Positions 24,565 through 37,933 of a stretch of 64,000 nucleotides of DNA are shown here, piece after piece (the stretch's first letter is position 1; every line of letters begins with the position of its first letter). The position numbers and the translations under genes are program-made. The notes beneath the pieces were generated by a model. The model ran no database searches and was not told the DNA's origin. It worked only from the letters and a program-made list of their open reading frames with translations. The stretch comes from an uncultured bacterium (GTDB lineage: Bacteria; Krumholzibacteriota; Krumholzibacteriia; LZORAL124-64-63): positions 1,344,001-1,408,000 of the forward strand of contig CAVSGO010000007.1 of the NCBI GenBank assembly GCA_963727525.1, in the 5' to 3' direction.

Positions 24565-26928
24565 TCAATCGAGGCGCCAGTGTTCCGTCTGGATCTGCAG
24601 GACCTTCTTCAGCCCAGGCAAGTGATCGAGCCGGCAGTGTTCGAGCCGTGACAGCTCGGCCGGCGTGAGTGCGTCGAGACCCGCGAGTCGCCGCAACACC
24701 ATGCGCCCGGCGGCCTTGATGCCTGCCACGCTGTAGCCGCCCTCGAGCACCCAGGCGATGCGCCCGTCGCATACCTCGGCCGCGATGCGTCCGAGCAGGT
24801 CGGCGATCCAGCGGTAGCCCGCCTCGGTGAGCTGCAGTTCGCCGATGGGATCGTCACGGTGCAGGTCGAAACCACAGGATACGAGCAGGAACTGCGGACG
24901 GTATTGCTGCGCGATCGGCCGCAACAGCCCCCAGAGCAGGCGGGCGTACTCGTCGTCGCCCACGCGACGATCGATCGGCACGTTCACGCTGAACCCGCGT
25001 CCCGGCCCCTCGCCAACTTCGGTGGCGGCGCCGGTGAACGGGTAGGCACCATCGCGATGAATTGAGAAGTACAGCACGTCCGGCCGCTGCCAGAACGCGG
25101 CCTGTGTCCCGTTGCCATGGTGCGCGTCGACGTCGACGATCAGCACGCGCTGCAGGCCGTGATACGTGAGCAGGTGCTGAGCCCCGAGCGCGGCGTTGTT
25201 GAAGTAGCAGAACCCCATGGCCTTGTCGGGCTCGGCGTGGTGTCCGGGCGGCCGCACGAGCGCGAACCCGTGCCGGCCGCGGCCCGCCATGATCTCGTCG
25301 AGCAGATTCAGCAGACCGCCGACGGCGAACAGGGCGGTGTCCTGCACGCGCTCGCTGGCGAGGATCTCCTCGCCCTCGGGCACGGTGCGAGGGCCGAAGG
25401 TGCCGGCACAACGCTGCACGTGCTGGAGCGTGTGCACGCTCTGCAACTCTGCCACCGTGGCCTGGCGCACCGGCACCTTGCGCCAGCGACCCTCGAGTTC
25501 GGGATCGTCGAGGACCTCGAGGAGCGCCCGCAGACGCTTGCCGCTCTCGAACGAGAGGATCTTCTCGAGATGACCAGCGAAGCGATCGTCGATGACCAGG
25601 AGCAGTGGTGGCGTGTCGGGGGCCGAGCCTCGTTCGCGTACCAGGCCGTACTCGTGCGCGTACCGCAGCAGTTCCTCGCACCAGGGTACGCCCTGACCGC
25701 GTTCCACCAGCGCGGCCGCCGCCTCGCCGGCCCAGGGCAACGACCGCTTGGCCCGGAAACACTCCTCGAAGAAGAACGCGCCGGCCACGCGGCGCGACTC
25801 GGTATCCGGCCGCGGGAACGGGTCGCCGATCTCCGCCGCGATCAGGGCCCGTGCCTGGCGGCGCACGAGGAAGCTGATCTCGCGCTGCGTCGACTCGGGC
25901 AGCGAAGGCAGCCGGTTCGCCATCGCCACGATGTTGCGCAGGAAGTGGCCGCGCGGGTCCTCGAGCCGGTAGACGTAGGGCAAGGCATGCACGAACCCGA
26001 GCGACTCGTAGAAATTCACGGCGCCGGGCTCGGCGCGCGCCACGACATTGGCCAGCGTCGGTTCGTAGATCTTCCAGAGGAGCCACGCGCCCGCGAGGAG
26101 CATCGCTCCCGCCCCACGGTGCACCCACTCGCCCCTCACGGGATGGCCGTGGGGCCCGCCCTGCGAGGTGGCGAGGTACCGGATCTCCAGTTCCTGCGGC
26201 CCGGCGCCGGCCGTGAGGCCCACTTCCATCATGCCGGCCAGACGACCGTGTACGATGCAGGCGAAGAGGCGCCTGTGCTCGCCATGCCGCACGACGTCGA
26301 GCACGTGTCGCAGGTTGAAGAACTCCAGGTCGCGGTCGGCGATCTGCAGGAGGCAATCACGCGTCAACGGGAGTTGCACGAAGAGCGCCGAGGTGTCGAC
26401 CTCGACCACGCCCTTGAAGTAGACCGCGGCATGGGCCGGATTCCAGGGCAACGCATCCCCGGGAAAGTCGCCCCGCAGATCCTCGAGCAGGGTAAGGCAA
26501 GCGCTCGCTGTCTCGTCGAGCGGCTCCTGCGCGAGCTGAGCCTCGTAGTGAGCCGACTCCTCGTTGAGGCGGTAGTCGACCAGGTACGCCAGACCGGCGC
26601 GCCGTGCCTCGCGACGCTGACGGGACCGTTGCCAGCCAAAGTCGGGTGACGATTGCCGCCTCTGCTCGCGCAGCGTCCCGTAGGCCAGCAGGAGGCGCTC
26701 CACGAGGGCAGGGAGCCCCTGGTGCAGGTACTGATGCCGGCGCACGTGGATACTCTCGCCATTGAAGGCGAACGCGGGTTCCTGACCCGACCCCGACGCC
26801 ACGTCGTCATCGGGGGGCACCGGCGCGAGCAGACCCCAGGTGATCATCTCGGTCAACGTATGGGCCGCCTCGGCGTCGTGCCCGGCGATTTCGCCGATCG
26901 CCTGCTGCAATGCGTCACGGCCGATCAT
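24565..26928 (-). CDS. GNAT-like acetyltransferase domain fused to a Zn-dependent histone-deacetylase-family domain
   Basis: GNAT motifs HRGAGAMLL and GAVNFYESLGF; HDAC motifs RPPGHHA, GFCYFNN, DVDAHHGNGT, GFD...DP, LEGGY; ATGA overlap with the upstream gene. Confidence 0.88.
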   Translation of the reverse strand: MIGRDALQQAIGEIAGHDAEAAHTLTEMITWGLLAPVPPDDDVASGSGQEPAFAFNGESIHVRRHQYLHQGLPALVERLLLAYGTLREQRRQSSPDFGWQRSRQRREARRAGLAYLVDYRLNEESAHYEAQLAQEPLDETASACLTLLEDLRGDFPGDALPWNPAHAAVYFKGVVEVDTSALFVQLPLTRDCLLQIADRDLEFFNLRHVLDVVRHGEHRRLFACIVHGRLAGMMEVGLTAGAGPQELEIRYLATSQGGPHGHPVRGEWVHRGAGAMLLAGAWLLWKIYEPTLANVVARAEPGAVNFYESLGFVHALPYVYRLEDPRGHFLRNIVAMANRLPSLPESTQREISFLVRRQARALIAAEIGDPFPRPDTESRRVAGAFFFEECFRAKRSLPWAGEAAAALVERGQGVPWCEELLRYAHEYGLVRERGSAPDTPPLLLVIDDRFAGHLEKILSFESGKRLRALLEVLDDPELEGRWRKVPVRQATVAELQSVHTLQHVQRCAGTFGPRTVPEGEEILASERVQDTALFAVGGLLNLLDEIMAGRGRHGFALVRPPGHHAEPDKAMGFCYFNNAALGAQHLLTYHGLQRVLIVDVDAHHGNGTQAAFWQRPDVLYFSIHRDGAYPFTGAATEVGEGPGRGFSVNVPIDRRVGDDEYARLLWGLLRPIAQQYRPQFLLVSCGFDLHRDDPIGELQLTEAGYRWIADLLGRIAAEVCDGRIAWVLEGGYSVAGIKAAGRMVLRRLAGLDALTPAELSRLEHCRLDHLPGLKKVLQIQTEHWRLD

Positions 26929-27935
26929 GATGTCCAGAGCGTCTGCAGGTCGGGCCAGAGCTTCCAGAAGGTGAGGGCCACCACCACCAGACTGTAGGCC
27001 GGCACCACGAGGCGCCAGACACGTTCCGGGAACACCCGCGTGATATACGGGGCGATCACCGCCGAGAACGTCGTGGCTAGCATGATGCTCGGCAACAGCA
27101 CGTAGTCGGCCGGCACGCCGCTGGCTCCCATCAGCAACCATGCGATCGCCGCCAAGCCGCACACCACGCCCTCGGAGAGGGCCGTCACCGCGAGCATGCT
27201 CTTCACCGGCACGCCGGATAGCAGGCCGCCGACGGTGACCACCGGCCCGTAGCCGCCGCCGCCCACGCCCTTGTTGAAACCTGCCAGCGCCGCAAAGACG
27301 ATCATGCGATTGGGCCGGTACGGCCGCTCGTGGCGCGACTGCTTGAGCGAGATCAGACCCATCGCCAGCAGCAGAATAGCCACGTAGAGCTTGATCCACA
27401 GGCGATTCACCTCGAATACGCCGTAAATCCCGATCGTCGCTGCGAGCACGAAGACCGTGCCGACGCCGGCGATGATCAGGCACAGCCGCACCGTCTCGCT
27501 CATCGGCCGGAACTTCCACTCGACATTCTGGAACTCGCGATGCAGGAAGGCGCCGATCAGGCCGGCGAAGGACTGCTGGATCAGCACGGCCGGGACGATC
27601 TGGAGGGGATCGAAGCCCATCACCAGGAGCACCGGCGTGAGCGCCGTACCGAACCCCATGCCCGCAGCCGCGTCCATGAACTCGAAGACGAGCGCCAGGA
27701 CCACGACGCCCCAGATGATGCCCCATTCGCGGGTGCCGGCCCACCCGTATTCCGCCATCAGTGGATTACCTGGCAGGCGCGAGCTGTGGGAGGCCAGCCA
27801 GCACCCACCCAGAAAGACCAGAAAGAAGAGAACGACGCTCGCGAGCGCGGCACGCACCTGCCGCCACTCCGGCACGATGCGCTGCCAGACCGAACCCTTC
27901 TCGCGTTCGAGATCGCGCGCGACTTCCCAGCCCAT
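26925..27935 (-). CDS. TauE/SafE sulfite-exporter-family membrane protein
   Basis: FMDAAAGMGFGT, GFNKGVGGGGYGPVV; start could be 27992 instead. Confidence 0.85.
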   Translation of the reverse strand: MGWEVARDLEREKGSVWQRIVPEWRQVRAALASVVLFFLVFLGGCWLASHSSRLPGNPLMAEYGWAGTREWGIIWGVVVLALVFEFMDAAAGMGFGTALTPVLLVMGFDPLQIVPAVLIQQSFAGLIGAFLHREFQNVEWKFRPMSETVRLCLIIAGVGTVFVLAATIGIYGVFEVNRLWIKLYVAILLLAMGLISLKQSRHERPYRPNRMIVFAALAGFNKGVGGGGYGPVVTVGGLLSGVPVKSMLAVTALSEGVVCGLAAIAWLLMGASGVPADYVLLPSIMLATTFSAVIAPYITRVFPERVWRLVVPAYSLVVVALTFWKLWPDLQTLWTS

Positions 27936-28124
27936 GCGTCGCTCGGGTTTGCGATCCACGGACGCCTCCCCTAGATATTCTCGCCTTGCCACTGGACACG
28001 TGGCGGGAATAATAGCCGAAGTCGCCCCTTTCGGCCCAGTCCTGACATCACGCCGTCCCGAGGTTGACCCGATGCCGGTGCCGATCCATCCCCTGTCCCC
28101 TCTCCGGCTCGCCCGCGCGGTCTC

Positions 28125-28961
28125 GTGGTGGCCGGTATTCCGATCCTACAGACGCTGGACCTGGTGATCGGCGCGCTCGTCCTGCTGTTCTTCCTGATCA
28201 GCGCCTTGATCGAGGACGGCGACGTGTCGGGTGCCCTGGTCGGCGCCATGGGCGTGATGGGGATCATGTTCGTGGTCGGCGCCACGATCGAGGTGATCAT
28301 CGAGGCTCTGCGCGATTTGCCCGGCCTGGGCACGGTGATCGGGTTCATCACGAACGGACCGGAGGCGTTGTGCCTGATCGTCGGCCTGGCCGCCGGCGAC
28401 GTGCTCTTCGCCGCGAGCACGCCCCTCGGCTCGAACTTCATGAATCCGCTGCTGCTCTTGGTGGCGGGGCTGATCACCGGCAGCACGGCACTGATCTTCC
28501 GCCAGCACCGAGCCACGACCCTGATCACCCTGGGCGTGACCGCCATCCTGGCCGGCAGCTTCTTCCTCATCCCCCCGGCGATCTACCCCTGGTGGCTGGC
28601 GGCGACGGTGGCGGTGAGCGTCGTGCTCTTCCTGCGCCGGCCGCCCGAACCGTCCGAGACGGTGGACACCGCCGGACAGATGCCGCGCTGGGCGGTGTTG
28701 CCGGCCGCGCTCCTGCTGGTGGTGGCGGGATATTTCCTCGACCCGGTCGTCGGCTACGCCGCCGCGGCGTCGCACGCGCCCAAGGGCGTGATCGGCTTCT
28801 TCGTGCTGGCGACACTGACGAGCTGGCCGGAGTTCAAGTCCTGCCTGACGCTGCTGCGCCGCGGACGGCCGCTGGCCTCGGTGCTCAACATCACGGTCTC
28901 GAACATCACGAACCTCTGGCTCGCGAGCATCGGCGTGATCATTCACCTGCTCACCCGCTAG
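28125..28961 (+). CDS. Sodium/calcium exchanger (CaCA) family membrane protein
   Basis: Two alpha repeats: TNGPE...GSNFMN and TSWPE...VSNITN. Confidence 0.8.
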   Translation: MVAGIPILQTLDLVIGALVLLFFLISALIEDGDVSGALVGAMGVMGIMFVVGATIEVIIEALRDLPGLGTVIGFITNGPEALCLIVGLAAGDVLFAASTPLGSNFMNPLLLLVAGLITGSTALIFRQHRATTLITLGVTAILAGSFFLIPPAIYPWWLAATVAVSVVLFLRRPPEPSETVDTAGQMPRWAVLPAALLLVVAGYFLDPVVGYAAAASHAPKGVIGFFVLATLTSWPEFKSCLTLLRRGRPLASVLNITVSNITNLWLASIGVIIHLLTR

Positions 28962-29659: not shown

Positions 29660-31207
29660 CTAGAGCAGCCGCGCCAGCGCGTCCCTGCGCACCTTGCCGG
29701 CCGCGCTGCGCGGTAGATTCGCCAGGAAGTGCACACCCCGCGGAATCTTGTACATGGCGAGGTTCTCGCGGCAGTGAGCGAGTACGCGCTCGGCCGGCAG
29801 CGCAGCGCCGGGAATGGGCACGACGAAGGCCTCGACCGCCTCGCCGAGCAACTCGTCCGGCACGCCGATCACGCTGATCTCCGCCACCTCGGGCAGTTCG
29901 GCGATCACGTCCTCGATCTCGCGCGGGCTCACCCGATTGGCACCGACCTTGATCATATTCTTGATGCGATCGACCAGGAAGATGTAGCCCTCGGCGTCCT
30001 TACGTCCGAGATCGCCGGTGTGCAGACCGTCGCGGTCGAGAACGAGGGCCGTCTCGGCCGGGTCGTTCCAGTAGCCCTGCATGATGTTGTCGCCCGTGGC
30101 CACGACCTCGCCCACCTCGTCCACGCCGCACTCACGCCCGCCCTCGCCACGGATGATGAGCTGCACGCCGGGGATCGGCAGCCCGATGCTCCCGAGCTTG
30201 TCGGACAGCCGCTCGGGGGGCACGTAGCTGAGGCGCGCGCTGGCTTCCGTCTGGCCATACATCACGAAGAGTCGCACGTGCGCCGGCAGCGCCTCGAGCA
30301 GGCGTCGCTTCAACGGCACCGTCATGCCACCACCGGCCTGGGTGAGGTAACGCAGATCGGGCCACGGCCGCCGCAGGAAATCGGTGCGTGCCGCCAGGAT
30401 GGCGTAGGTCGAAGGCACGCCGGAGAACCCGCTCACCTTGCTGCTCGCAATGGCATCGACCACCGCGGCCGGATAGGCGAAGCGGTTGTCCACGACGATC
30501 CGCCCGCCCACGGCCACGTGGGTCAGCAACAGGGAGTTGCCGAAACTGTAGTGGAAGGGCAGCACACAGAGCACGCTGTCGCGAGCCGTCAGCTCCAGGT
30601 AGGCCAGGATCTGCTGCGTATTGGCGACGAGGTTGCCGTGCGTGAGAGTCACGCCGCGGGGCCGTCCCGTGGAACCGCTCGTGTAGAGGATGGCCGCGAG
30701 ATCGTCGGGGCCGCACCGCGGCGCCGGACACGCGTCGCTGCACGCGGCCAGCTCGGCCGGTCCCAGCAGTGTCACGGACTCGGGCAGATCCCATGCGGGA
30801 TTGAATCGATCCAGCAGCACGAAACGGAGGTTCGGCGCGCCCTGGATCAGGGCCGGCAGATCCCGCCGCACCTGGGCAGCCACGGTGACCAGCCCCACGG
30901 CACCGCTGTCCTGCAGGAGTTCGGCCGTCGTGCGCGCCTTGTTCGCGCTGTTGAGGGCCACGCAGCAGGCCCCGGCCTTCAGGATGCCGAAGAAACCCTC
31001 GACGTAGGCGCGGCCGTTCTCCGCGAGCAGCCCGACCCGATCGCCGCGATCCACGCCCTGCGCGAGCAGGCGGTTGGCGACGCGGTTGGCACTCGCATCC
31101 AGGTCACCGTACGTGAGATGGGTATCGCCGTGCTCGAAGGCGACGACGCCGGACGCCGAACCGGCACTCGTCTCCAGCAGTTCCGCGACCGTGCGGGGGG
31201 ACGACAT
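29660..31207 (-). CDS. AMP-binding acyl-CoA/acyl-ACP ligase
   Basis: YTSGSTGRPRG, MYGQTE, TGDLG, PRSAAGK. Confidence 0.93.
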   Translation of the reverse strand: MSSPRTVAELLETSAGSASGVVAFEHGDTHLTYGDLDASANRVANRLLAQGVDRGDRVGLLAENGRAYVEGFFGILKAGACCVALNSANKARTTAELLQDSGAVGLVTVAAQVRRDLPALIQGAPNLRFVLLDRFNPAWDLPESVTLLGPAELAACSDACPAPRCGPDDLAAILYTSGSTGRPRGVTLTHGNLVANTQQILAYLELTARDSVLCVLPFHYSFGNSLLLTHVAVGGRIVVDNRFAYPAAVVDAIASSKVSGFSGVPSTYAILAARTDFLRRPWPDLRYLTQAGGGMTVPLKRRLLEALPAHVRLFVMYGQTEASARLSYVPPERLSDKLGSIGLPIPGVQLIIRGEGGRECGVDEVGEVVATGDNIMQGYWNDPAETALVLDRDGLHTGDLGRKDAEGYIFLVDRIKNMIKVGANRVSPREIEDVIAELPEVAEISVIGVPDELLGEAVEAFVVPIPGAALPAERVLAHCRENLAMYKIPRGVHFLANLPRSAAGKVRRDALARLL

Positions 31208-31215
31208 GAGTCCAC

Positions 31216-31467
31216 CTACGCCGCGGCCTGCTTGCGCGTGACGAAGTTCACGAGGTTGTCCACCGAGTCCAGGTTCTCCGGCACCAGTTCCTCGTCGGCC
31301 ACCTGGACACCGTGGTCCTTCTCCAGGAACGCCACCAGCTCCATCACGCCCACCGAATCGATGATGCCGCTGTCCAGCAGCGACATGGTGTCGTTCTGCA
31401 TCGGGGCGCCGTCACCGAAGAGGAAGTTCTCGATGATGTAGGCTCGAATACTCTCACGCATGTCCAT
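31216..31467 (-). CDS. Acyl carrier protein
   Basis: GIIDSVGVMELV phosphopantetheine site, PENLDSV. Confidence 0.92.
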   Translation of the reverse strand: MDMRESIRAYIIENFLFGDGAPMQNDTMSLLDSGIIDSVGVMELVAFLEKDHGVQVADEELVPENLDSVDNLVNFVTRKQAAA

Positions 31468-33505
31468 GGGGCTCCTCGCAGGGGGTCGGATTGCGCCAGG
31501 CGAGCGCCATCGGCGCCAGGGCGGCGTCATCAATCCGGTGATGGTAATCGGCACCGAAGAGGTCGGCAAGAATCTGGCCCGTGAGCACGCCGACGAAACC
31601 CATCGTCTCGCGCGCGCTGGTCAAGCGACCGGCCTCCCACTTGCGCAGGAGACTGGCCACACGGGTCGGCTCCCACAGGCCCGCCCCGGCCACAGTGGCC
31701 GGCGCGAGTCGCTCCTTCACGAGCCGGCGCCCCGCATCGCTGCCGAGGCACGCGAGGTCGGGCGCCCGGTACGGCAGCTTGGGACGGCGGACTATGGCCG
31801 GCGGCAGGAGATCGGCGACGGCGGCGCGCAGGATATCCTTCTCGGCCAGACACGGGAGTTTCACGCTGGCGGGCAGCGAGCCGGCCAGCTCGGCCACGTG
31901 CACGTCGAGAAAGGGGAATCGCCCCTCCACCGAGTTGCCCATGAGCATGCGGTCACCCTGGCTGCTGAGCAGGTAGCCGGCCAGAAATGTCGTCATCTCC
32001 AGGTACTGGGCGCGCGCGAGCGGTCCCCAGCCGGCGAACCCGGCCGGCAACCCGGCCGCAAGCCGCGCCTCGGGCGCGCTCGCATGGAACCTGGCCACGG
32101 CGTCCTCCGCGAGGAAGGTGGTCATCATGCCCGTGTTGTGCCAGCGCGGACGATGACTGAAGAAGGGCTCGTCGGGGTCGTCGAGGCCATGGCCGTAGAA
32201 CTGGCTGAGGATCTGCGGCGACGATTGCGCGAGGTAGGGGTAGAGGCGCGTCAGCAGCCGCGCGCGCGCCTGCGAGCGCGGATCGCGGGCCCAGAATCGG
32301 CGCACCTTCGTCTCGCGAAAGATGTTGTAGCCGGCGAAGACCTCGTCGGCCCCCTCGCCGGTAAGGACGACCTTGTAGCCCGCATCGTGCACGAGCTGCG
32401 AAAGTACGTGCAGGGGCGCCGGCGCCGTGCGCAGGATCGGCATCTCCGCGTGCCAGACCACGTCGACCAGACGCTCCGCGATGGCATCGCCGTCCACGCG
32501 CACGGAACGGTGGTCCGTTCCCAGATGCGCGGACATCGCGTGTTGCCACGGGCTCTCGTCGAAATCGCCGTCGACGAAGCCGACGGAGAACGTCTCGAGT
32601 CGCCGATCGGTGGTGCTGTGAATGAGCGCGGCGGTGGCGGAGCTGTCGAGCCCGCCCGAGAGATAGGCACCCACCGGCACGTCGGCGCGCAGACGAATCA
32701 CCGACGCCGCCTCCAGCGCGTCGCGCACCTGCCGCGCCATGGCGGCCCGCTCGACGCGATCCACGAAGCGACGATCCTCGTCCGCAGGCAGGAAGTCCGG
32801 CGTCCAGTAGCGCCGCACAGCGAGGCAGGCCGGCAACGGCGCCGGACCGGCCGTGGTCTCGGGATCTGTCCCCCGGCAGGTCGCCACATGGCCCGGCGGC
32901 AGCTGGGCCACGCCGGAGAAGACCGATGCAGGCGGCAGCGTCACCCAGTACGTGAAGACCTCGGCGAGTCGCGCCGGATCGAGCGTCCGCGCCAGGCCCG
33001 GCCAGGCGAGGATCGCCTTGACCTCGGAGCCGAAGAGGAGCACGTCGCCGTGTCGGGCCACGAACAGCGGCCTGATGCCGAAGCGGTCGCGCGCGAGGAA
33101 GAGGCACCGTTCCCGGCGGTCCCAGATGGCACAGGCGAACTGGCCGTTGAATCGATCGACGCAGCCCTCGCCCCATTCGGCGAAGGCCTGCACCAGCACC
33201 TCGGTGTCGCTGCGCGTGCGGAACACGCGGCCACGCGCGGCCAGCTCGTCGCGCAGCTCCGGGTAATTGAAGATCTCGCCGTTGAACGTCACCCAGTAGC
33301 GCTCGTCGGGCGTGCTCAGAGGCTGCTGGCCCCCAGCCAGGTCGATGATGCTCAGGCGGGCGTGACCGAGAAACGTCGTGTCGTCTCGCCAGGCCCCGAA
33401 CTCGTCGGGACCACGGTGACGCATCGCCCCGATCATCCGCTCGGGGGTGCCGGGCGCAAGCTCGAGGCGGCCACGCAGGGCCATCGCACCACAAATGCCA
33501 CACAT
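31454..33505 (-). CDS. asnB: Asparagine synthase (glutamine-hydrolysing)-family amidotransferase
   Basis: N-terminal MCGI, HRGPD, NGEIFN, LSGGLDSS, GEGADE, EGRFPFLD. Confidence 0.93.
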   Translation of the reverse strand: MCGICGAMALRGRLELAPGTPERMIGAMRHRGPDEFGAWRDDTTFLGHARLSIIDLAGGQQPLSTPDERYWVTFNGEIFNYPELRDELAARGRVFRTRSDTEVLVQAFAEWGEGCVDRFNGQFACAIWDRRERCLFLARDRFGIRPLFVARHGDVLLFGSEVKAILAWPGLARTLDPARLAEVFTYWVTLPPASVFSGVAQLPPGHVATCRGTDPETTAGPAPLPACLAVRRYWTPDFLPADEDRRFVDRVERAAMARQVRDALEAASVIRLRADVPVGAYLSGGLDSSATAALIHSTTDRRLETFSVGFVDGDFDESPWQHAMSAHLGTDHRSVRVDGDAIAERLVDVVWHAEMPILRTAPAPLHVLSQLVHDAGYKVVLTGEGADEVFAGYNIFRETKVRRFWARDPRSQARARLLTRLYPYLAQSSPQILSQFYGHGLDDPDEPFFSHRPRWHNTGMMTTFLAEDAVARFHASAPEARLAAGLPAGFAGWGPLARAQYLEMTTFLAGYLLSSQGDRMLMGNSVEGRFPFLDVHVAELAGSLPASVKLPCLAEKDILRAAVADLLPPAIVRRPKLPYRAPDLACLGSDAGRRLVKERLAPATVAGAGLWEPTRVASLLRKWEAGRLTSARETMGFVGVLTGQILADLFGADYHHRIDDAALAPMALAWRNPTPCEEPHGHA

Positions 33506-36710: not shown

Positions 36711-37933
36711 GTGCCACGAAGAATGTTGACGGGTCCAGCGCTTGCCTGGGCCCGTCCTCATGAACACCAAAACCCTCACTTCATGCCCTACGCTTCCTCC
36801 CCACTGCCCCAACCCTAACTGCAAATACCACAAGCCTCAGCCGCAACCCTGGCCCTTCGCGCTCTTCGGCACCTTCTCCCGAAAATCCCCACCCTACACC
36901 GTCCAACGCTACCTCTGCCTGGCCTGCGGCAGGACCTGCTCAGACCAGACCTTCCGCACCACATACTGGCTCAAACGCGCCGATCTCCTGCCCAAGGTCC
37001 ACAAGCACGCCGTCTCAGGCGCCGCCAATCGCCAGATCGCCAGGCTCCTCGACACCTCGCCGACGACCGTCGACAACCTCCTCGCCCGCCTCGGCCGGCA
37101 CTGCATCCTCTTCCATCGACACCTGGTGTCCCAGGCGTCACCCTTCGTGGACATCGCCATCGACGGCCTCGTCACCTTCGAGCACTCCCAGTATTTCCCC
37201 TACGAGATCGTCGCGGCCGTCGATCGCCCCTCCAGCTTCATCATCCACTTCGCCGAGGCCGAGCGACGACGCAGCGGGGCGATGACCGACGAGCAGAAAT
37301 GGAAACGGTCCCTCTTTGAACAAAACTATGGCCGGCCGGACCCCAGGTCGTTGATGCGGGCGCTGCTCGAGGTGCTCTCGGTCTCGCTCGACGGCGCCAC
37401 CGAGGCCCACATCTGGAGCGACAAGCACAAGACCTATCCCTACGCGATCGCGAAGCTACGGTATTGCAAGGTGATCCACGAGACGATCGACTCCCGTCAG
37501 CCGCGGACGAGTCGCAACCCGTTGTTCGAGGTCAACTTGCTGGACATGTTGCTGCGGCATTGTCTGAAAGACCACACGCGGGAGACGATCGCGTTCGGAA
37601 AGCGACGCCAGCATTCGATCTACCGGCTGGCGATCTTCCTGGTGTGGCGCAACACGATCAAGTTGCGTCGGGAGAAGCGGTGCTGGAGCACGCCGGCGAT
37701 GCAGATCGGGATCGCCACGAAGCCCTTGACCGAGGAGGAGGTGTTGTCGCGGCGGCTGTTCGTGTCGCATATCGAGTTGCCGCCGTTGTGGGATGACTAC
37801 TACTGGCGACGGGTCGAGACGCGGCCATTGAAGGTGAACCGGAGGCACAAGCTGACGTACGCCGTGTAGTGAGAAAGTCGGGCCTAGCGGGCGAGATCCC
37901 GGTGCGAAGCCTCGTCAACATTCTTCTTGGCAC
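36711..37933 (+). mobile_element. IS1-like insertion sequence with 21-bp terminal inverted repeats
   Basis: Left GTGCCACGAAGAATGTTGACG (36711-36731) vs reverse complement of right GTGCCAAGAAGAATGTTGACG (37913-37933), one mismatch; encloses a single transposase-like ORF. Confidence 0.8.
36760..37869 (+). CDS. Transposase-like protein (Zn finger, HTH, DDE-like core)
   Basis: CPNPNC...QRYLCLACGRT, RQIARLL HTH, IAIDG, WSDKHKTY, FEVN...LRH, TPAM. Confidence 0.8.
   Translation: MNTKTLTSCPTLPPHCPNPNCKYHKPQPQPWPFALFGTFSRKSPPYTVQRYLCLACGRTCSDQTFRTTYWLKRADLLPKVHKHAVSGAANRQIARLLDTSPTTVDNLLARLGRHCILFHRHLVSQASPFVDIAIDGLVTFEHSQYFPYEIVAAVDRPSSFIIHFAEAERRRSGAMTDEQKWKRSLFEQNYGRPDPRSLMRALLEVLSVSLDGATEAHIWSDKHKTYPYAIAKLRYCKVIHETIDSRQPRTSRNPLFEVNLLDMLLRHCLKDHTRETIAFGKRRQHSIYRLAIFLVWRNTIKLRREKRCWSTPAMQIGIATKPLTEEEVLSRRLFVSHIELPPLWDDYYWRRVETRPLKVNRRHKLTYAV

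Follow-up and report, generated by a model that had tools for sequence, protein, structure and literature searches.

The dedicated acetylation circuits known from bacteria mainly concern acyl-CoA synthetases. Opposing activities within one polypeptide are found in GlnD, GlnE, and RelA/SpoT. The closest described system appears to be that of Bacillus subtilis, in which, according to the accessible part of the report, the GNAT acetyltransferase AcuA and the Zn-dependent deacetylase AcuC control AcsA under the CBS-ACT protein AcuB (PMC13039410). Pat/PatZ provides a GNAT domain within a large multidomain protein, as described in the accessible text of PMC11254643. For the deacylases, the accessible portions of Graf et al. 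(PMC11532494) define the catalytic set of the classical enzymes, made up of the HH dyad, the charge-relay Asp/Asn, the Asp-His-Asp Zn ligands, GFC, and the Tyr of an xGGY motif, and take RPP together with EGGY as the mark of robust acetyl-specific enzymes. The same portions count small-molecule amidases among the cluster-1 deacetylases and report Ala in place of the second Pro of RPP in small-molecule amidases.

The gene analyzed here encodes a GNAT-deacetylase fusion protein that, by analogy, would work most like AcuA/AcuC, yet it fails to qualify as a member of AcuABC as described in that part of the report. In both cases a GNAT and a Zn-dependent deacetylase are encoded together, and CBS-domain proteins lie nearby in the form of the locus found in Desulfobacterales. 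In contrast to AcuABC, the fusion family usually occupies one chain, carries additional N-terminal and linker domains, has a class II-like deacetylase, and adjoins a transporter and sensor kinases rather than an acetyl-CoA synthetase, of which none occurs in the Desulfobacterales loci examined. Unlike AcuB, the Desulfobacterales CBS partner has a receiver domain and gives no ACT match, and a second, lone CBS protein likewise gives none. Neither protein is encoded at the window locus (the window being the whole 64,000-nt stretch of DNA that was analyzed), and no such partner was identified in the genome from which the window derives. As in Pat/PatZ (in the accessible text), the GNAT domain is part of a large multidomain protein, but the fusion protein lacks an acyl-CoA-synthetase-like or known effector domain and has its own Zn-dependent deacetylase. 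GlnD, GlnE, and RelA/SpoT share with the fusion family opposing activities in one chain, plausibly switched by accessory domains, but their folds and chemistry are unrelated and the comparison is an analogy only.

A conserved gene for a four-part protein

The gene and its parts occupy the following positions of the window.

24565..26928, minus strand: whole gene, 787 aa, comprising the N-terminal domain, GNAT domain, helical linker, and Zn-dependent deacetylase
26434..26928, minus strand: N-terminal domain, residues 1-165, in which a pair of helices and a short beta-hairpin are accompanied by long helices (model pLDDT 90.7)
25957..26424, minus strand: GNAT domain, spanning residues ~169-324; the ~15 residues inserted ahead of the CoA-binding loop are modeled with low confidence
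26107..26118, minus strand: CoA pyrophosphate loop R271-G272-A-G274, from conservation in 151 sequences
25993..26031, minus strand: motif B, E300 ... F306-Y307 ... G311-F312, from conservation in 151 sequences
25651..25947, minus strand: helical linker domain, residues 328-426, with five helices in the AlphaFold model
24565..25608, minus strand: Zn-dependent deacetylase, class II-like, with RPPGHH, GFC, DxH, GFD, and EGGY intact
25546..25554, minus strand: L1 loop, which reads SFE where the family has HLE; the window's clade combines this change with loss of the L2 DxDT motif

Translation of positions 24565-26928 (minus strand) yields a 787-aa open reading frame with no internal stop and with every motif quoted earlier, which bears out the single reading frame proposed in the preliminary description. 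No transmembrane segment is predicted. A protein search with the 787-aa query returned 155 matches, 120 of which were listed; among those listed, at least 78 homologs span at least 95% of the query, with identities of 31 to 74%. By their source names, the close matches come from Ca. Krumholzibacteria and the distant ones from Desulfobacterales, Syntrophobacteraceae, and other deltaproteobacteria. Precomputed Pfam annotation of the homologs gives PF00850 only; databases label the fusion proteins solely as histone deacetylases, so the GNAT domain is currently invisible. The fusion family gave no match in an NCBIfam search, and a PHROGs search gave just weak acetyltransferase matches (2/36).

Of 201 genomes searched from the window's phylum, 9 contain the N-terminal GNAT module (8 strong matches and 1 marginal), as do 3 of 401 Desulfobacterota genomes and 41 of 401 Desulfobacterales genomes. 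Of the loci, 45 were examined: the window itself, 7 from its kin, and 37 that come from 36 genomes of Desulfobacterota, with 6 of the 41 left out. The gene is an intact fusion in 32 of these loci, cleanly split in 7, and broken in 6. The halves of split genes stay adjacent, five splits having gaps of -23 to +3 nt and one a gap of 257 nt, and across the 45 loci the GNAT module is never far from its deacetylase, except for one truncated second copy. The possibility that two genes had been joined by an error, raised at the outset, is ruled out, because the full-length homologs and the conserved fusion exclude an assembly join or sequencing error. Judged from its sequence, the gene yields a single soluble protein in which a predicted GNAT fold is combined with a Zn-deacetylase active site that looks intact. 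Frameshifted or truncated copies occur in L017, L016, L136, L156, L164, and L135, reflecting either decay or assembly error, and genome G739 holds two copies of the gene.

GNAT domain

An AlphaFold model of residues 1-435 (pLDDT 90.4, pTM 0.89) contains the full beta0-beta6 GNAT fold, with elements running from E169-175 to E319-322 at pLDDT 90. The structural matches of this region are GNATs (Z 8.6-10.2; for 2oh1, Z 10.0, rmsd 2.8, 133 aligned residues), as the preliminary description had supposed for the middle of the protein. Protein, tRNA, and small-molecule acetyltransferases score alike among these matches, the Streptomyces lividans Pat GNAT included at Z 9.6, so the comparison supports the fold while naming no substrate class. 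Profile-profile comparison (hhalign) of the region with the genome's own GNATs, represented by 15 of its 18 PF00583 matches, gave a probability of 95% and an E value of 2.9e-8, against at most 1.4% for 20 column shuffles and under 0.5% for other domains. Eight of 11 weak matches in a profile search of the PDB are named acetyltransferases. The Pfam GNAT score of the query lies below the curated cut-off (18.3 versus 23.6 bits, E 0.0024); in a scan at E<=0.5 of the 62-sequence alignment, which consists of the query and 61 of the 78 full-length homologs, Acetyltransf_10 is matched by 49 members and any family other than GNAT or HDAC by 1.

Motif B of many GNATs usually has an Asn where the fusion family has a Glu, and its Tyr is the general acid in many of these enzymes. 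The Asn is seen in several GNATs of the window's genome. The pattern A-x-x-F-Y-x-x-x-G-F, including the Tyr, is present in the fusion protein. Among 151 distinct sequences, G232, G272, G274, E300, and Y307 are invariant, F306 and G311 are each found in 150, and R or K occupies position 271 in 143. Compared with the canonical P-loop (Q/R)xxGx(G/A), as given in the accessible text of PMC11254643, the first Q/R is missing, with R at position 269 in only 6 of 62 sequences; a Q or R that follows strand beta4 in 94 of 151 may be the P-loop residue displaced by the insertion. Purifying selection acts on the GNAT domain (for example, pN 0.06-0.13 versus pS 0.39-0.56 in four pairs of close kin) much as it does on the deacetylase, pN is well below pS for all domains within the window's clade, and linker and GNAT both match the deacetylase in conservation. 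No stand-alone relatives of the GNAT domain were found among the short proteins searched, and atlas scores under 0.9 are leads only.

N-terminal and linker domains

The first 165 residues belong to no recognized family, and searches with them gave no Foldseek match, no atlas match, and no clear fold match among 48,161 structure chains (best Z 5.0). This lack of a match to a predicted structure does not prove a new fold. About 215 residues of unrecognized N-terminal sequence had been proposed; the unrecognized character stands, whereas the length shrinks to ~165 residues because the GNAT domain begins near residue 169. The helical linker stays with the GNAT domain in split forms, the split point falling after it. 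When residues 1-440 were used to search the whole library, 71 cluster representatives were recovered, several of which are stand-alone modules of 427 to 468 aa.

Deacetylase domain

Residues 441-787 form the deacetylase (PF00850, E 4e-87). H563, H564, D599, D601, H603, N606, D688, and Y732 do not vary across the 62 aligned sequences, nor do RPPGHH and EGGY, and the Phe of GFC is present in 61, all of which agrees with the earlier claim of a complete Zn-dependent deacetylase. The best PDB matches are class II-like (HDA15 at 200 bits and HDAC6 at 189, versus 129 for ApaH). By motifs and similarity, the domain has the RPPxHH, EGGY, and class II resemblance of cluster 1 (HdaH/class II-like), and it shares catalytic motifs, RPPGHH, EGGY, and best PDB matches with the HdaH-type deacylases of that cluster and with class II HDACs, as far as these are described in the accessible text of PMC11532494. 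It differs from the cluster-1 enzymes in its association with a 435-aa GNAT module, whether by fusion or by coupling, and in forming its own clade. The second Pro of RPP is retained in the family. Polyamine deacetylases (ApaH of cluster 4, HDAC10) are marked by an extended L2 loop that sets polyamine specificity or by a gatekeeper Glu in a PEG motif (PMC11532494). The polyamine gatekeeper Glu (PEG) is absent from the 62-sequence alignment, the window having D-P-I-G and most other members D-R-L.

In a tree of 117 deacetylase rows, the outgroups were ordinary deacetylases, which made up most of the matches in a scan of genome contigs (1 of 80 is a family member). The fusion family accounts for a single clade of 57 rows in this tree (support 99), apart from 59 stand-alone deacetylases of the loci. 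Split forms lie inside a subclade that also holds fused forms (support 88); the order of fusion and splitting is just suggested, since the tree was built with a quick method and rooted at its midpoint. The window's clade (9 rows, support 100) sits on a long branch.

The rim loops distinguish this clade. Replacement of the usual HPE pocket motif by SFE had been proposed; SFE is indeed present, but the motif replaced is the family's own HLE/HME, and SFE is a clade trait, the L1 His being kept in 51 of 51 sequences outside the window's clade and Ser standing in 10 of 11 within it. Among 105 distinct deacetylase sequences, 96 keep the L1 His and L2 Asp-Thr; 78 of those have a sensor match in the locus, and 16 of the other 18 come from loci under 6 kb. 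The remaining 9 have both loops changed and lack sensors in every case, and they form one clade and thus represent one event. These changes suggest a shifted target surface in the window's lineage.

Other GNAT-deacetylase fusions

A second fusion of a GNAT with an ApaH-like deacetylase (~580 aa) is encoded in the same genome (G000 C5:219951-221702, minus strand) and is followed by another GNAT (C5:219538-219804). It belongs to a 580-aa family of GNAT plus acetylpolyamine-amidohydrolase-like proteins (JGI 'AcuC-like/GNAT') that resembles the 787-aa family in placing the GNAT N-terminal to a Zn-dependent deacetylase in one chain. The N-terminal modules of the two are without detectable similarity (probability 0.2% with a single-sequence template), however, and the 580-aa family has a deacetylase outside the fusion-family clade and a GNAT that Pfam recognizes. 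The fusion-family deacetylase shows no extended L2 insertion of the kind present in the 580-aa proteins. A common family was rejected on the dissimilar N-terminal modules and the position of the deacetylase; by these sequence comparisons the 580-aa protein is an independent fusion, and the GNAT-deacetylase architecture itself is not unique.

The supplement of Graf et al. (PMC11532494), in its accessible part, lists UniProt entries with a GNAT-deacetylase fusion, and also D. alkanivorans DSCA_38890, with the deacetylase at 422-714, whose layout fits the fusion family and makes it a candidate member. The accessible main text of the same paper does not discuss GNAT fusions. Our literature search, in which coverage of subscription papers was thin, found no description of the fusion family or its operon. 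Within that search, the proposal of an undescribed system holds for the family but not for the architecture, as 580-aa fusions are already labeled in databases.

Linkage to a TauE transporter and a sensor operon

Directly upstream of the fusion gene lies the transporter gene to which a link had been suggested.

26925..27992, minus strand: TauE/SafE (TSUP) transporter of a distinct clade (PF01925, E 1e-18)

The start of the fusion gene overlaps the stop of the TauE gene by 4 nt, and the encoded transporter is 61% identical to that of the Desulfobacterales operon. TSUP proteins are poorly characterized and are predicted to move sulfur compounds (PMC5840216, accessible part). The suggested link holds well: within the window's phylum, the fusion gene (strong matches) and the TauE clade are carried by an identical set of 8 genomes out of 201. 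In 5 of the 8 the TauE gene is unlinked, lying on another contig or 177 kb away. All 37 TauE-clade genomes among the 401 Desulfobacterales carry the GNAT module (all within the 41), and in the 4 module genomes with no TauE-clade match the module sits at a contig end. TauE is the constant partner gene and the sole one retained across both phyla. Note that kinship and linkage inflate these counts: the 8 window-family genomes are kin, and in Desulfobacterales the two genes are inherited together mostly because they are physically linked. The correlation between the distances of TauE and those of the GNAT module is only weak (rho 0.29). Lys13, in the N-terminal tail of TauE, is conserved in 35 of 36 sequences and is a candidate acetylation site. 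A tie to sulfate or sulfite reduction was rejected for this organism, because its genome (96.7% complete) contains no NIR_SIR sulfite-reductase domain.

The gene, fused or split, lies within a sensor operon in Desulfobacterales. The usual order there, and in the kin genome G193, is PAS kinase, sigma-54 regulator, lone CBS, (antiporter), TauE, small membrane protein, receiver-CBS, dCache kinase A, fusion gene, dCache kinase B, and receiver; G193 has neither CBS gene in the stretch fetched. Kinase A (L143:6902-8578 and orthologues) has the H-box with its phospho-His in 0 of 28 sequences but keeps the ATP-binding boxes, whereas kinase B, which flanks the other side of the gene, and its paralogues have the H-box in 38 of 39. 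Among 80 metagenome loci, some duplicating genome loci, 63 include enough upstream DNA, and the gene directly upstream is kinase A in 58, TauE in 2, and an exchanger-like gene in 3. The receiver-CBS protein (L143:6013-6864), matched in 33 of 45 loci including some paralogue matches, keeps the phospho-Asp motif and could be a nucleotide-sensing adaptor. The small membrane protein (L143:5017-5544; 32 of 45 loci) has no Pfam match, and its conserved C-x(n)-CG ... C-x2-GH pattern suggests a metal site. In 7 of 45 loci (L131, L133, L150, L156, and L164 among them; Desulfobacterales), the operon is followed by a gene for a DASS/SLC13 transporter, which has a dCache kinase of its own.

A profile search with a control detected no orthologue of kinase A, kinase B, or the small membrane protein in the window's genome, where sensor profiles score at most 37.5 bits, versus 321 to 382 in the control locus. 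Kinase B is also absent from the five kin genomes searched, while the sensor is present in G193. The partners left in the window's lineage are just TauE and a divergent gene.

28125..28961, plus strand: Na+/Ca2+-exchanger-like membrane protein, divergently oriented (PF01699, E 3.6e-6)

Of the 45 loci, 8 contain the exchanger-like gene; 7 of these belong to the window's family, in which it usually adjoins the fusion gene.

Proposed mechanism and alternatives

The comparisons show that two folds of predicted opposing catalysis are kept together, remain coupled when split, are under selection, and travel with one transporter clade. A GNAT joined to an intact-looking deacetylase and co-inherited with TauE points to an uncharacterized acetylation on/off switch linked to the transporter, and a bifunctional switch is the likeliest reading of the sequences. 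To the full proposal, a reversible lysine-acetylation switch coupled to the TauE-clade transporter, we would give somewhat less than an even chance. The GNAT domain would bind acetyl-CoA and transfer its acetyl group, the deacetylase would remove acetyl rather than long acyl or polyamine groups, and both would act on lysines of the same dedicated protein target; docking, or a switch between the activities, would be supplied by the N-terminal and linker domains. The job of the target is probably tied to the co-inherited transporter. In Desulfobacterales the input would likely come from the flanking dCache sensors, one of them without a phospho-His, and from the receiver-CBS protein. Since the window's lineage has no such sensors, the switch there would need a different input, for example the acetyl-CoA level.

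Part of the evidence can be read differently. The missing P-loop Q/R, the insertion ahead of the loop, the Glu at the usual Asn, and Pfam GNAT scores below the cut-off would suit a GNAT domain that is a non-catalytic acyl-CoA sensor or scaffold switching the deacetylase, which would make the protein a regulated eraser instead of a writer-eraser. The module is not found far from a deacetylase, bar the one truncated second copy, and the adjoining kinase A is also degenerate. We nevertheless consider this rather unlikely, given a motif-B Tyr and a Glu that are invariant in 151 of 151 sequences and a model that retains the full beta0-beta6 fold. It is also conceivable, if unlikely, that a small amine or organosulfur metabolite moved by TauE is acylated and deacylated in a trap-and-release or detoxification cycle. 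The transporter is the only partner kept in both phyla, sulfur compounds are the predicted cargo of TSUP proteins (PMC5840216, accessible part), cluster-1 enzymes include small-molecule amidases (PMC11532494, accessible text), and the rim loops are changed in the window's clade; yet conserved enzymes of biosynthesis or catabolism are absent from the 45 loci, whose neighboring genes encode signaling proteins, the domain lacks the polyamine gatekeeper Glu and keeps the second Pro of RPP, and the genome has no NIR_SIR domain. That the gene in this lineage is the leftover of a decayed operon, with halves functionally unrelated or fading, we regard as improbable: the sensors and small membrane protein were not found in the window's genome, the clade is on a long branch, and frameshifts affect 2 of the 7 loci retrieved for the window's family, but pN is well below pS in all domains, linker and GNAT are conserved like the deacetylase, TauE is retained even when unlinked, and the catalytic residues are intact.

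A more specific version of the acetylation switch, which we put forward as speculation and think doubtful, is that a single chain directly gates TauE by acetylating and deacetylating the transporter or a tightly bound partner. Ancestrally it would have been driven by a His-less sensor kinase that passes a membrane signal to acetylation instead of phosphorylation, via an N-terminal domain with no solved-fold match, and in this lineage it would have been rewired to run sensor-less. More generally, a single chain that both writes and erases acetylation, and that is connected with sensor kinases and a transporter, would put acetylation to a new use in signaling, would show how a futile cycle is avoided, and would provide a handle on the poorly understood TauE/TSUP transporters. 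Because fused, split, and sensor-less versions occur in nature, the mechanism lends itself to direct tests.

Other genes near the fusion

The window also encodes an AMP-binding enzyme within positions 29660-33505 (minus strand), together with what are presumably an acyl-carrier-like protein and an asparagine-synthase-like gene. The AMP-binding enzyme lies near the fusion gene in all 11 window-clade loci matched and in no other locus; its position probably reflects synteny among kin, and it is possibly a target. A 375-aa open reading frame with an HTH match at 36742-37869 (plus strand) resembles, we presume, an IS transposase. Elsewhere in the genome, a CBS-containing open reading frame is directly followed by a small GNAT (G000 C7:2108611-2110608, plus strand).
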